Positions 13,872 to 44,949 of a stretch of DNA of 64,000 nucleotides are shown here, piece after piece. A program made the translations under genes and the position numbers. The stretch comes from Oligoflexia bacterium. GTDB taxonomy: Bacteria; Bdellovibrionota; UBA1018. The stretch spans positions 832,001 to 896,000 of the forward strand of contig CAVWVI010000003.1 in the NCBI GenBank assembly GCA_963758495.1, written 5' to 3'. The notes under the pieces were generated by a model. That model searched no databases. It saw only the letters and a list, made by a program, of their open reading frames with translations, and had not been told where the DNA came from. Position 1 is the first letter of the stretch. The number at the start of each line of letters is the position of its first letter.

Positions 13872-15479
13872 CTACCTGATTATATAACCTTCCCTTTCCA
13901 TGAGGTATAACCAAAATCTGTCTTTCACCCGAAAATTTGCTGAATGGTCACCCGCTGGGGCTTTCTCAAAGTACTCATTAGGCGCATCCATATCAGTGAA
14001 AAATTCTGTATAGGCATCAGCTAAAATGGGGTCGCTGAAGGCCATTTCTTGGATCAAGTGACTGGTCAACTTCTGCCCAACAGCAAGAGAATCATGAGAA
14101 TGAATGAGAGCCGTTCCAGCTTCATTGACCCGCGCACGTTCTCGAGACTCCTGTAGAAGTCTAACCATTTTATCGACATTGTATGACTCAAATTCGACAG
14201 TAGGATAATTTTGATAAGGCAACTGGACTCTTTCGCCAGCGAGAAACCGGCCCATCACTCTTCCAGGTTTTAATTCAGAAAGCGATGGTGCACCTAGATG
14301 AGGATAGGATATTTCCGCTTCGGTTCCTCTTAATCCCAAAGAATAGAGCATTCGCTGTCTCAAAACTTGAGGAGCCGTTGTTCTAAGTTCACCCTCGGGC
14401 CTTGGGTCTAACTCTGCGTGTCTATCAATAAATTTCATTTTATACTCTGTAAAGACTCGACTCATAAAATCCCCAGCACTGTCGGGATTACCTTCCTGGA
14501 AATGTTCTTTCTCCAGATCCGCAAGACCACTCTGAAAGCCGTCAAGACAACGATCCAAGTGGCTAGAGAGACGCAGGGCTAAATCACCTAGAGGAGTTGA
14601 CGTTTGTACCCCGTGCCCTCCCGCCTCTGTTTTGTCTCTCGCACTTTCAAATAATCTTTTGACTCTCTTACGGATAGATTGTTTAGTTTGGATCTTATTT
14701 TCATCATCATCTTCATCATCTTCATCCATCATCACGCCTCTAAAAATCACTTCCAAATCATTGGCAAGACTTCCTACCTCTGGATTGTTTTGAAGCGATC
14801 TGAGTATCTCTCCCCATTGAGCATCATCTATAGGTTCTGGATAGATGTGATGAATATCCTTGGAATGCCGATAGAAATAAGGATCTTTGGCTATGAAATC
14901 ATAATTCACACGATAGAACCCTGGTGTATAAGGACGTACTTTGACTTCATTGAGGACTGACTCAGCCATTTCGAAATCTTTCTTTAAATCAAATAGTTCT
15001 GATGAGATATAATGCCGATCTACTTTCTGTTGTAGACTCTGCTCTGCATCCTGATAGTGAGTCATGACTTCGGGATTCCTAGGTACAGCGATATTTAAAT
15101 AGGCGTAATGAGACTGAGGAATCGTCGGTGCTTGCGGAGGCGTATCTTCATTCACTGATCCATATTGTGCTTGCTGCTGTAGTATAGTGGCATGCTGACG
15201 CAACAATGCCCAACTCCTACGTACTGTTGTCGGTACCTCAATCGGAGAAGGTGATCTCAGGAGAGACGGTAAGGGCTCAAGAAATGAAGGCCGCTCATCC
15301 CCTTGTGATTCCAGTAACGAGTATGCTGGAGGCAGACGCCGATACAAAGTTACAGGAGGAGCAGGTAATTCTTCATCAAAATCAGGCAATACCACTACTA
15401 ATTGCTGTGGCGTCTCTTCTGGAAAACCCCATGCCATAGCAGACGCAGGAATCCACGAGAGGAGGAACAATTTTATCAT
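13872..15479 (-). CDS. Secreted protein with putative NEL-like (IpaH/SspH-type) E3 ubiquitin ligase domain
   Basis: Signal peptide MIKLFLLSWIPASAMA|W; CLD motif and YSLGL-x5-EISY segment resemble NEL (by eye); ORF could extend to 15524. Confidence 0.45.
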   Translation of the reverse strand: MIKLFLLSWIPASAMAWGFPEETPQQLVVVLPDFDEELPAPPVTLYRRLPPAYSLLESQGDERPSFLEPLPSLLRSPSPIEVPTTVRRSWALLRQHATILQQQAQYGSVNEDTPPQAPTIPQSHYAYLNIAVPRNPEVMTHYQDAEQSLQQKVDRHYISSELFDLKKDFEMAESVLNEVKVRPYTPGFYRVNYDFIAKDPYFYRHSKDIHHIYPEPIDDAQWGEILRSLQNNPEVGSLANDLEVIFRGVMMDEDDEDDDENKIQTKQSIRKRVKRLFESARDKTEAGGHGVQTSTPLGDLALRLSSHLDRCLDGFQSGLADLEKEHFQEGNPDSAGDFMSRVFTEYKMKFIDRHAELDPRPEGELRTTAPQVLRQRMLYSLGLRGTEAEISYPHLGAPSLSELKPGRVMGRFLAGERVQLPYQNYPTVEFESYNVDKMVRLLQESRERARVNEAGTALIHSHDSLAVGQKLTSHLIQEMAFSDPILADAYTEFFTDMDAPNEYFEKAPAGDHSANFRVKDRFWLYLMEREGYIIR

Positions 15480-15532
15480 TAAACTTTTTGTTAAACTTTT
15501 TGTTAAATCTTTATCCGATCCCATCCATAGCC

Positions 15533-15560
15533 TATTCGGAATATATGCCCTATAATTAAA
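15533..15560 (-). promoter_or_regulatory. FliA/sigma28-like promoter upstream of the NEL-like gene
   Basis: TTTAA-N15-TCCGAATA, same spacing as the other three copies. Confidence 0.4.
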
Positions 15561-15577
15561 GATTTTTATGCTTTTTA

Positions 15578-42451: not shown

Positions 42452-42489
42452 TCGCTGCCGCGAAATAGTTCCTTTAGGGCTGCTTACAT

Positions 42490-43857
42490 TCACTGTTCAA
42501 AATTATTCATATTCCCCACTGTTTCGTCAGGAGACGTAACGTCTTGTAATGGCATCTTAGGGGTCGGCTGAATTTCACCAGAACGAATGAGATCTGAATT
42601 AATCTGATCTGCATTCAAAGCTTTCGGATCCAGAGTTACACTATTATACCCTACCCCGGGATTTGAAGAGTTCCCATTATTTGGGGGGAGTTTGATGCGT
42701 TCCATCCCTGTATAAAATTTAGGCTGTTGGAATTGTTTGCCATTCATTTTTTTCTGGTTAGAAGCTCCATTAGGCGCCCGATTAGACGGATTAGACAGAT
42801 TAGACGAAGGCGCATTCGCTTGTTGCTGCATACGGGCAGCCAAACCACTTGCCTGATCTATAAATATGCCTCTAGATTCTGCAAATATACCATAATTCGC
42901 ATCCTCTTCTGGATTCTTATCGTTATAGAACTTTTTTGCCTTCTCTTGGATCTCCTTCTGAGTCAAATTGGGATTTTTACCTTGAGCTTTAAGATAATCA
43001 TCCGCTTGAGTTCGATCTATTTTCCAAGCATCATTGGCAATCTTAAATTGCACTTCATTCGGTATGGGCTTCATGCCATTCATTTCTTTAACCGTAAATT
43101 TTTGATCAGGATCAAGCTGATTCGGATCTTTATAAATATCTTTATATTTTACATAGTCTGATGCTTGAGGTTGAGCATAGCCATGCTTAGCAAGACTCTC
43201 CGCATTCGCTGTATATTGTTTTATGATTTGATCATAGTCTTGTTGGGTCATCTTTTTAACCACACCATTAGGATCGCCTTCAAATTTCTTTTTAGCCCAG
43301 GCCTGTAAGTCTTTATAGGTTGGAAAGTAGGGCAATTGAGGTCTATCACTTCGCTGAATAGCAATGGTGGGAGCGTTTCCTGCGATCAAACAATTTCCCT
43401 TTTCGTCGAACTTCTCACAAGCGAGTCGGGCCTGCTCTTCATGACTCCCCAACATACTGTTTTGAATTTGGGTTAGAAACGGCTTTTGTAAAATATAATA
43501 ACGCTCAACACAGTTACTGATAGGCTCTTCAGGCTCGCAAAAATCACCTAGAATATTTTTTTGTCGTGCCTCCTCCCCATGAAGGCTGGCCATTTTTAAT
43601 TCACCGATCTTATTCAAGATGAAGTCGGCAATGAGAGAATTGACTTCCAGTGCTTTTTGATGTGCCTTCCCAATTTCCGGTGGATCTGGAATACTGGAAG
43701 GCCCAGAAGTAGGAAGAGGAGGTGGAGTCACTCCTTCAGCCTGTCCATTAAATTCCTCCAATCCTACCGCAAATGATATTTGAGAACACAAAGATAGAGA
43801 AAGACCGCAAAAGAGCAGCAAAATCAAAGTCAATTTGCGATCCTGTAAGGAGGTCAT
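42490..43857 (-). CDS. Secreted hypothetical protein
   Basis: Signal peptide, 455-aa ORF, Gln/Asn/Pro-rich tail. Confidence 0.7.
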   Translation of the reverse strand: MTSLQDRKLTLILLLFCGLSLSLCSQISFAVGLEEFNGQAEGVTPPPLPTSGPSSIPDPPEIGKAHQKALEVNSLIADFILNKIGELKMASLHGEEARQKNILGDFCEPEEPISNCVERYYILQKPFLTQIQNSMLGSHEEQARLACEKFDEKGNCLIAGNAPTIAIQRSDRPQLPYFPTYKDLQAWAKKKFEGDPNGVVKKMTQQDYDQIIKQYTANAESLAKHGYAQPQASDYVKYKDIYKDPNQLDPDQKFTVKEMNGMKPIPNEVQFKIANDAWKIDRTQADDYLKAQGKNPNLTQKEIQEKAKKFYNDKNPEEDANYGIFAESRGIFIDQASGLAARMQQQANAPSSNLSNPSNRAPNGASNQKKMNGKQFQQPKFYTGMERIKLPPNNGNSSNPGVGYNSVTLDPKALNADQINSDLIRSGEIQPTPKMPLQDVTSPDETVGNMNNFEQ

Positions 43858-43947
43858 GATTCTTTCATTATAGCAAGAAGCATGACCCCTTCGCAGTGTT
43901 TTATTTAACTTTTAGTATTTATTAAATAGTCTCGTTAATTCAAAGAG

Positions 43948-44949
43948 TTACTTAACACTCACCAGGCGAAGTCCTACATCCGGGCTCGCATGGGCGGGAT
44001 TCGTAGGGATTCGCGCAGCAGATCGAACATTCCGAACGTCTAAGTACCAACTCCCCCCCCGAATCACCCGATTCGAGCTAGATGCTGAATAATACGTATC
44101 TGTTTGCTTAAAGATATTGCCTGATAAATTCCGAAATCCTCTTGCATTGGGCTGCACATAATCTACGTCTGAAGGACCCTCCAGATAATTTTTGCCAAAT
44201 ACTGCAAAAAAATTAATGGCTATCCGATCTTTACAATTAGCTCCAGAGTACCTGGAATGCTTGGCCGTAATTTTAACGGTTTTCCCAGGACGACTAGGAT
44301 CTCTAACTTCTTCTACATGACCTGGATCAAGAGGAATCGTAGTCGCATACTCAATCTGCTCTTCACTCGGTCTTTTGAATTGGAGTACTGTCGTCTTTGG
44401 GTAAGCCACAGGCCAAAGCTCGGCGACCTTTTGATTGAGCCTAGCAATATAGATATCCCATTCAGCGTAGGTTAACCCTCTTTGTGGTTTTTTAGAGTGA
44501 TTTTTTCCGCTACCCATTAAATAATCATAATTGGCTTCGGTCACATCATCTACTGCCATAAAGTAACCTTCTTTAATTTCCACATATTTTCGTGGCTCAT
44601 TGCTATTTGGATTAGGCTCGTCTGCTTCTCGCCCCATCACAAACGAGCCTGGCTCTACCCATTTCAAATCACCTACGCCAAGTTTTAGAAGTTTTTTCTG
44701 AGCCCATTGAGCTTGTCTTTCTGCAGCTTGATTTTGGGTTACATGATGAATGGTCTTGCATCCCTGATTGAAATGAAGCCAATCCTTCTGACTTAAGTAA
44801 TTGCTTACTTCATGGATGAGCGCATCAGGCAAATGCTGAAAGCTTCCATCGCCGTCTCCTCCTGCGAGACTCTGGGAGGAAACCATTAAAGTTAAAATAA
44901 AAACAGTTACCCAATTATATTTATACTTCATACAAAAGCCTTTTTTCAT
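43948..44949 (-). CDS. Secreted F-box-like plus FGE-sulfatase (SUMF1/CLec) domain protein
   Basis: Signal peptide; FQHLPDALIHEVSNYLSQKDWLHFNQGCK F-box; GSFVMG, PNARGFRNLSGN, RGGSW...GLRL. Confidence 0.8.
   Translation of the reverse strand: MKKGFCMKYKYNWVTVFILTLMVSSQSLAGGDGDGSFQHLPDALIHEVSNYLSQKDWLHFNQGCKTIHHVTQNQAAERQAQWAQKKLLKLGVGDLKWVEPGSFVMGREADEPNPNSNEPRKYVEIKEGYFMAVDDVTEANYDYLMGSGKNHSKKPQRGLTYAEWDIYIARLNQKVAELWPVAYPKTTVLQFKRPSEEQIEYATTIPLDPGHVEEVRDPSRPGKTVKITAKHSRYSGANCKDRIAINFFAVFGKNYLEGPSDVDYVQPNARGFRNLSGNIFKQTDTYYSASSSNRVIRGGSWYLDVRNVRSAARIPTNPAHASPDVGLRLVSVK

Follow-up and report, generated by a model that had tools for sequence, protein, structure and literature searches.

A 64-kb stretch of the genome of an Oligoflexia bacterium (the window, C3:832001-896000) carries, beside a Tad/Kil-like pilus locus, four genes that encode candidate ubiquitin-ligase proteins with Sec-type leaders. 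The source genome has a length of 3.66 Mb, is divided into five contigs (written C1-C5; bare coordinates are positions within the window), and is 92% complete. Bdellovibrionota are known for preying on bacteria, and the named relatives of the proteins from this genome are labelled Bdellovibrionia, Bdellovibrionales or Oligoflexia. A look-up of sequencing runs with positions 22800-29500 of the window listed none, and gave no indication of habitat or expression in either direction. The first-pass annotation of the window, made from the sequence alone, had described the four genes as lying within about 31 kb, and all four open reading frames (ORFs) are present. Each is named here after its first coordinate. 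Gene 13872 (13872..15524, minus strand) encodes 550 aa with a C-terminal helical domain of about 400 aa that contains the invariant Cys326 in the motif RCxDG; it is located between a PP2C gene and the pilin gene flp. The product of gene 24848 (24848..25576, plus strand; 242 aa) has a central hydrophobic segment rich in Gly and Cys and a C-terminal C3HC4 RING. Gene 25587 (25587..27302, minus strand; 571 aa) codes for ankyrin repeats, a linker that looks coiled-coil-like by eye, and a C-terminal RING. Gene 43948 (43948..44949, minus strand; 333 aa) combines an F-box-like motif (residues 37-72) with an FGE-sulfatase-like domain.

Domains were assigned using Pfam and NCBIfam profiles with curated cut-offs. 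The RING of gene 24848 spans residues 159-217 and scores 35 bits against PF00097 (cut-off 21). Three paralogs on C1, 27-28% identical to it, share the hydrophobic segment between the leader and the RING, which reaches its hydropathy peak at residue 95 of the 24848 protein and could act as a membrane anchor. The ankyrin repeats of gene 25587 match PF12796 with 191.8 bits, and its RING retains all eight zinc ligands; the PF13639 score was 25.7 bits in one search, below the cut-off of 27.3, and 30.4 bits, above it, in another. A homologue with 37% identity is present in a relative (G008, ORF on L006). The zinc-ligand patterns together with the profile scores confirm the two proteins as the RINGs named in the first-pass annotation, with a predicted E3 function.

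The F-box of gene 43948 could be retained as an F-box-like motif only: its scores of 12.9-15 bits against PF12937 (cut-off 24.3) and 13.3 bits against PF00646 (cut-off 20.5) are too low for the domain itself. Most of the protein is formed by the FGE-sulfatase-like domain (PF03781, 52.3 bits). The same architecture is repeated in two other genes of the genome, one of which (C4:466055) passes the F-box cut-off with 23 versus 20.5 bits, and the 43948 protein is a putative SCF substrate adaptor.

The earlier designation of gene 13872 as NEL-like is not supported at the level of profiles. A match to the NEL family was not found in Pfam (PF14496) or NCBIfam profile searches, in one of which no positive control matched. 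The NEL-likeness is based on a weak whole-domain structural match of the predicted model to SlrP, SspH1, and IpaH, and on the CxD motif, which a forced alignment places on C357-x-D359 of IpaH7.8, the single CxD of its C-terminal domain. The motif cysteine is invariant in the family (89 of 89 covering sequences; in a second count, Cys in 55/55 and Asp in 51/55). Further comparisons were negative: Foldseek returned no match to the model at E 0.001, hhalign against one IpaH7.8 sequence gave a probability of 0.2, and the family profile scored about 1 bit against two IpaH sequences, which is not significant, with two weak segments colinear. The best hit of the profile in a PDB sequence search had an E-value of 0.38, and the ESM Atlas held no usable match. 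The family is 8-11% identical to the NEL ligases and carries RCxDG instead of their CEDR. Whereas NEL ligases are delivered by a type III secretion system, the 13872 protein has a Sec leader, and a Pfam scan found no leucine-rich repeat (LRR) or other repeat domain in it. Among 54 scanned relatives of the protein, repeats are of the Sel1 (nine), ankyrin (two), HEAT (two), TIG (two), and LRR (one) types, and in some members the putative catalytic domain is positioned, as in the NEL ligases, C-terminally to LRR, ankyrin, or Sel1 repeats. From its sequence and predicted model, gene 13872 encodes a probable distant NEL-like cysteine E3 ligase.

The four genes belong to a set of 25 ligase-type genes scattered over the source genome: 15 with a RING, six further ones bearing an IBR domain (one split, one without a leader), three F-box-like, and one NEL-like. 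Matches to PF13639 number 15, those to IBR six, and those to Ank_2 85, the last distributed over 32 ORFs examined; a further 394 leader-bearing proteins of the genome were set aside in the domain scans. Two F-box-like LRR genes (C1:557066 and C1:558543) and a RING recognized by regular expression only (C3:1163519) have no Pfam match and were excluded from the 25. The order characteristic of RBR ligases, RING1 followed by IBR and a third domain with a cysteine at the catalytic position, is seen at C4:41195 (IBR 39.4 bits, weak third domain) and C4:226948. The second IBR-like domain of the RBR proteins carries a conserved GC-x-x-M-x-C motif, in which we take the catalytic position to be that of the Parkin/HHARI motif. 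An 864-aa protein with a Sec leader (C1:146136-148730) is a fusion of WWE, RING, Deltex C-terminal (DTC), and ARTD15/PARP16-like domains. Its named homologues are all animal RING/Deltex-C proteins, most of them 38-52% identical, and its neighbours are bacterial; owing to database bias, the animal homologues give no host assignment.

A scan for companion effectors, which covered 85 of 102 selected ORFs, added secreted Ser/Thr kinases, a PI3/4-kinase-like protein, and RCC1, HEAT, and LRR proteins. In ten of the 25 ligase-type genes, the last domain is Lcl_C-like or FGE-like. Overall, 19 ORFs or fragments have the Lcl_C-like domain at their C terminus, and at least eight more have an FGE-like domain there (for example L020, L052, L053, and L058). 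Legionella Lcl is a substrate of the type II secretion system (T2SS), and it is possible that the shared C-terminal domain is a host-binding or export tag. The G+C content of the ligase set (in its 23-gene version) averages 0.427, and 0.365 at third codon positions (GC3), as compared with 0.426 and 0.367 for the genome. A leaderless remnant in the window (33208..33716), which the first-pass annotation had overlooked, consists of 367 bp that are 97% identical to the inside of the ankyrin-RBR gene C3:745315-747771; the next 144 bp match, with 90% identity, the 3' end of the neighbour of that gene, a secreted FGE-domain gene. The source stretch, C3:743955-746417, is 120 kb away, and the 97% identity to so distant a gene indicates recent scattering of the ligase genes.

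Several further families were seen in the same genome. Six genes for secreted proteins (C2:80585, C3:740975, C3:743987, C4:966681, C5:156533, and C5:157900) have a common N-terminal domain of about 110 aa, mostly fused to an FGE-like domain, and often adjoin ankyrin-RBR genes; a Skp1/BTB-like look noted by eye in this family had no Pfam support in the one member tested. Six large secreted paralogs of 650-890 aa (C4:7845, C1:184841, C3:235983-247261, and C5:2496) match Pfam only in a C-terminal Lcl_C-like domain, present in five of them. The segment C5:41446-51268 encodes two ankyrin-AAA (ClpA-like) fusions with Sec leaders.

The leaders were evaluated with our own heuristic, which is not a validated predictor and scores a hydrophobic core and a small-x-small cleavage site against a threshold of 1.5. 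All four window genes, for which Sec signals had been claimed, pass it (scores 1.67, 1.87, 2.84, and 2.20). Of internal segments, 5.5% pass, and of 25 cytoplasmic proteins from the window, none. The leader of gene 25587 has a long n-region, and that of gene 24848 can be read either as a signal peptidase I site or as a lipobox (LVSC), so its product may be a lipoprotein. The cleavage end AMA|W noted earlier is indeed present in genes 13872 and 25587. Over the whole genome it occurs at three of 6297 ORF starts, and as a cleavage site it is of the common A-x-A type. Genome-wide, the test is passed by 22 of the 25 ligase-type genes versus 35% of 1853 background N-termini (binomial P 8e-8) and by 28 of the 32 ankyrin genes, two of the four failures being pieces of split genes. 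The RING ORFs of the clade relatives described below pass in 13 of 18 cases, and four more loci have no complete ORF.

The ligase arsenal is a clade trait. PF13639 was found in one of 40 relatives and in none of 14 control genomes. Counted over the phylum, a RING is present in 11 of 401 genomes, the source genome included, and in seven of the 59 genomes that make up the searched part of the family. IBR is found in 10 of 74 family genomes and, outside the family, in one phylum genome among the 401; the 13872 family is present in seven of 74 family genomes. RING, IBR, or NEL-like matches occur in 13 family genomes, all of which belong to one clade of 14 genomes (support 0.97); none of the 52 genomes outside it has such a match. 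The tree was calculated from four markers for 66 of 75 family genomes (six without an RpoA match and three partial ones were omitted) and was rooted at the midpoint, with no outgroup; the same clade has a UFBoot value of 99 in a 30-genome IQ-TREE tree. The clade spans nine genera, and its genomes are smaller (median 2.9 versus 3.6 Mb after completeness correction; kin are not independent). RING matches in another genome, G142 (L074 and L084), lie on DNA with a G+C content of 0.59, lack leaders, and are probably eukaryotic contamination of that genome.

The genome contains four secretins: the GspD of a T2SS, PilQ, and two of the Tad type. The T2SS operon (C4:358395-372112) includes gspC, gspD with an N0 domain, gspE, gspF, gspG, and minor pseudopilins, whereas the K, L, M, and N components were identified chiefly from their place in the operon (K matched weakly, L matched as PilM_2, and M and N gave no match). 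GspD is present in 72 of 75 family genomes; the profile PF03934 proved unspecific as a T2SS marker, matching 10 of 14 controls, and was replaced by PF21305. A T2SS is the standard second step for Sec cargo. Type III, IV, and VI secretion systems (T3SS, T4SS, T6SS), for which the first-pass annotation proposed a check, were not found in the 92%-complete genome: the one FlhA lies inside the flagellar operon, VirB4, the sheath of a T6SS or extracellular contractile injection system, and TssC have no match, and among 14 queries for I- and F-type T4SS only the DotB-like ATPase matched, on pilus and T2SS ATPases. No E2 match was found in the genome, in a search in which no positive control matched and which did not extend to E1 and ubiquitin.

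Although the first-pass annotation did not recognise its proposed route as described, export of eukaryote-like effectors by Sec leaders and a T2SS has been predicted for Babela massiliensis. Babela has signal peptides on 79 of 126 ankyrin proteins, an F-box, a RING, and a T2SS as the sole secretion system detected (PMC4378268). Signal-peptide effectors together with vesicles are described for Chromulinavorax (PMC6561590). The source genome shares with these Dependentiae the many signal-peptide ankyrins, F-box and RING proteins, and the T2SS, but belongs to another phylum. Babela is a reduced obligate parasite of amoebae with one RING reported (PMC4378268), whereas the source genome contains 15 RING matches, proteins of the RBR and Deltex-PARP types, and a cysteine-ligase candidate, and keeps an intact flagellum, type IVa pili, and Tad. 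The T2SS substrates ProA and ChiA of Legionella can cross a semipermeable vacuole into the host cytosol, in amoebae as well (PMC5478897). They are, in contrast, a protease and a chitinase of an organism that also has Dot/Icm, which was not found in the source genome.

The description of a Bdellovibrionota-type organism with Sec-leader ligase mimics, in which T3SS, T4SS, T6SS, and E2 gave no match within the limits stated, is supported more strongly than first claimed. The many exportable ligase mimics suggest a lineage that preys on eukaryotes or resides in them. What is seen are the domains, leaders, secretion machines, and distribution; the export of the ligases and their host, niche, and activity are predicted from these. 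We lean, with modest confidence, towards the view that the genes are clade-specific, genome-wide mimics of E3 ubiquitin ligases that act inside a eukaryotic cell, most likely an invaded or parasitised protist, after export by Sec and T2SS. The leaders would take the ligases to the periplasm, and the T2SS, the operon of which is present, would carry them across the outer membrane. By analogy with Babela and the Legionella T2SS cargo, they would then meet host E1, E2, and ubiquitin, the bacterium being free in the cytosol or enclosed by a leaky vacuole. As judged from their domains, the RINGs may act as scaffolds that bring host E2~Ub to the targets to which ankyrin or other domains bind, the F-box-like protein may recruit host SCF, and in the 13872 and RBR proteins a cysteine may carry the ubiquitin; the hydrophobic segment of 24848-type proteins may hold them in a vacuole or host membrane. 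The tad locus would be an inherited attachment and invasion machine, and the four genes near it independent insertions.

Several observations weigh against this interpretation. An ATP/ADP translocase was not found in the genome (partial weak matches occur in 10 of 40 relatives), and the genome is motile and little reduced. Passage of zinc fingers through the periplasm is a problem; E. coli DsbA and DsbB queries found no homologue in the genome at E 0.01, and distant Dsb or VKOR proteins could escape such queries. Finally, four of the 25 genes lie within 30 kb of the tad locus, with a nominal P of 0.002 (0.009 for three of 21 events), a post hoc value as the window was picked for this feature. 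A broader scenario, which we hold only tentatively, is that the 14-genome, nine-genus clade shifted from bacterial prey to eukaryotic cells, keeping Tad for attachment or entry and remodelling the host with Sec- and T2SS-exported ligases, among them RBR ligases, a Deltex-PARP fusion, and a previously undescribed family of cysteine E3 ligases (about 100 clusters), many with a shared C-terminal Lcl_C or FGE domain that may serve host binding or uptake.

The second export step might instead go through outer-membrane vesicles or TolC, or come about by cell lysis. Sec plus TolC is reportedly the path of a Rickettsia ankyrin protein. The RINGs with hydrophobic segments or possible lipoprotein leaders would suit vesicles, a route proposed for Chromulinavorax (PMC6561590). 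Nevertheless, a T2SS is at hand in the source genome, and we regard this alternative as rather unlikely. It is also doubtful, in our judgement, that the organism still preys on bacteria and that its ligases, set free inside the food vacuole, protect it from protists that graze on it. The intact Tad, type IVa pili, and flagellum, the missing ATP/ADP translocase, and the limited genome reduction would agree with such a lifestyle; the 25 ligase-type and 32 ankyrin genes, the kinases, and the smaller clade genomes would fit sustained host manipulation better, and the cargo would still need a way into the cytosol.

The first-pass annotation had proposed delivery through the Tad secretin. The core of the Tad/Kil locus (4110..13759, minus strand) encodes YD-repeat-like and TadB-like proteins (by eye), a TadZ-TadA fusion (6725-8893), the secretin RcpA (8908-10524), RcpC/CpaB, a TadE-like protein, an A24 peptidase, and the Flp pilin, in an order kept in relatives. 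The upstream half (15578..22714, minus strand) contains genes for a PP2C-like phosphatase, three FHA proteins, of which two have TPR and the third PAS, DUF192, and a TadC-like T2SSF protein. A second rcpA-tadA module at C3:446717-449151 is like B. bacteriovorus tad locus 2. The window locus resembles B. bacteriovorus tad locus 1, for which a TadZ-TadA fusion is described (10.64898/2026.07.08.737194), and the Myxococcus Kil system (PMC8460266), with which it shares the fusion, FHA/TPR neighbours, and a second rcpA-tadA module; it is a family-wide predation locus, which differs in the genome-specific insertion of gene 13872.

Contact-dependent delivery of the same host-directed ligases through this secretin would accord with the four genes near the locus, one of them inside it, with the retention of the Tad secretin in 13 of 13 clade relatives, and with the requirement of Myxococcus Kil for contact killing, the toxin of which is unknown (PMC8460266). 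G223 and G307 have no A24 match and at first looked like genomes that had lost Tad naturally, but both retain the secretin and TadZA. The distribution of the genes speaks otherwise. Tad, traced by its A24 peptidase, occurs in 66 of the 75 genomes of the family, most of which have no ligases, and a T2SS is present. None of 29 relatives has a NEL-like gene in its tad stretch: PP2C abuts flp in 17, the contig ends early in seven, and another gene is there in five. Gene 13872 is an insertion seen in the source genome only. In relatives, flanks of about 1.5 kb around 11 NEL-like loci and 25 RING loci showed no recognisable tad gene; tamB could be located in three relatives, and in none of them is it followed by a RING. 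Among the clade relatives, many of them with fragmented assemblies, only G223 has a RING/IBR match on the contig of its tad secretin, at least 50 kb away. In the source genome, 21 of the 25 genes are more than 30 kb from the tad locus or on other contigs, and a second group of four is located on C1 away from tad genes. Four of 25 genes within 31 kb anywhere in the genome has a P of 0.026 under random placement and of 0.21 after merging adjacent pairs. Delivery of the ligases by Tad is unsupported; the neighbouring pilus machine is probably not their route, and we consider the proposal improbable.

Highly improbable is a function of the domains without host ubiquitin (in the periplasm, in bacterial prey, or in a bacterial ubiquitin-like system) or their origin in eukaryotic contamination: some bacteria carry prokaryotic RINGs, Prok-RING models match weakly, and the G142 matches look like contamination, but the genome yielded no E2 match within the limits given above, exported E3s would be separated from a cytoplasmic system, and the genes are intronless with bacterial leaders and genome-like GC3, lie on a 1.68-Mb contig that also carries ribosomal genes, and are found repeatedly in a single clade of nine genera.

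The Sec and T2SS route is a known prediction. The interest of the system is carried by the clade-wide arsenal and not by the Tad neighbourhood. If the ligases act as proposed, the clade would represent a change to eukaryotic hosts whose history a tree can resolve, arsenal-free sister genomes serving as controls, and it would be the second lineage after Dependentiae whose cytosol-acting effectors appear to leave by Sec without an injection needle. Bacterial E3 ligases form at least seven families, and just a single one is similar to eukaryotic RINGs, according to a 2026 paper (PMC13728172); bacterial ligases of the RBR and Deltex types, together with the RCxDG family, would lengthen this list. 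The candidates share with eukaryotic RING, RBR, and Deltex ligases the C3HC4 pattern with the following arginine, the series RING1-IBR-second IBR-like domain with GC-x-x-M-x-C, and the WWE-RING-DTC arrangement, but they are encoded by bacterial genes, begin with Sec leaders, and are joined to ankyrin, Lcl_C, or PARP16-like domains; their ligase activity is a prediction. In vitro assays of them would not require the organism to be grown. In the open-access literature, to which the search was confined (subscription journals were not covered), nothing was found on ubiquitin ligases or eukaryotic hosts in the Bdellovibrionota lineage, or on bacterial RBR ligases or the RCxDG cysteine family.

Other genes of the window adjoin those described above. 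Two tandem Bor-family lipoprotein genes (23910-24652, minus strand) are located directly beside the RING pair. Next to gene 43948, a gene at 42490-43857 (minus strand) encodes a secreted protein of 455 aa without a paralog or a Pfam or ESM Atlas match. Further along, an XRE-like gene is followed by two genes that by eye encode HipA-like kinases (48902-52165, plus strand).

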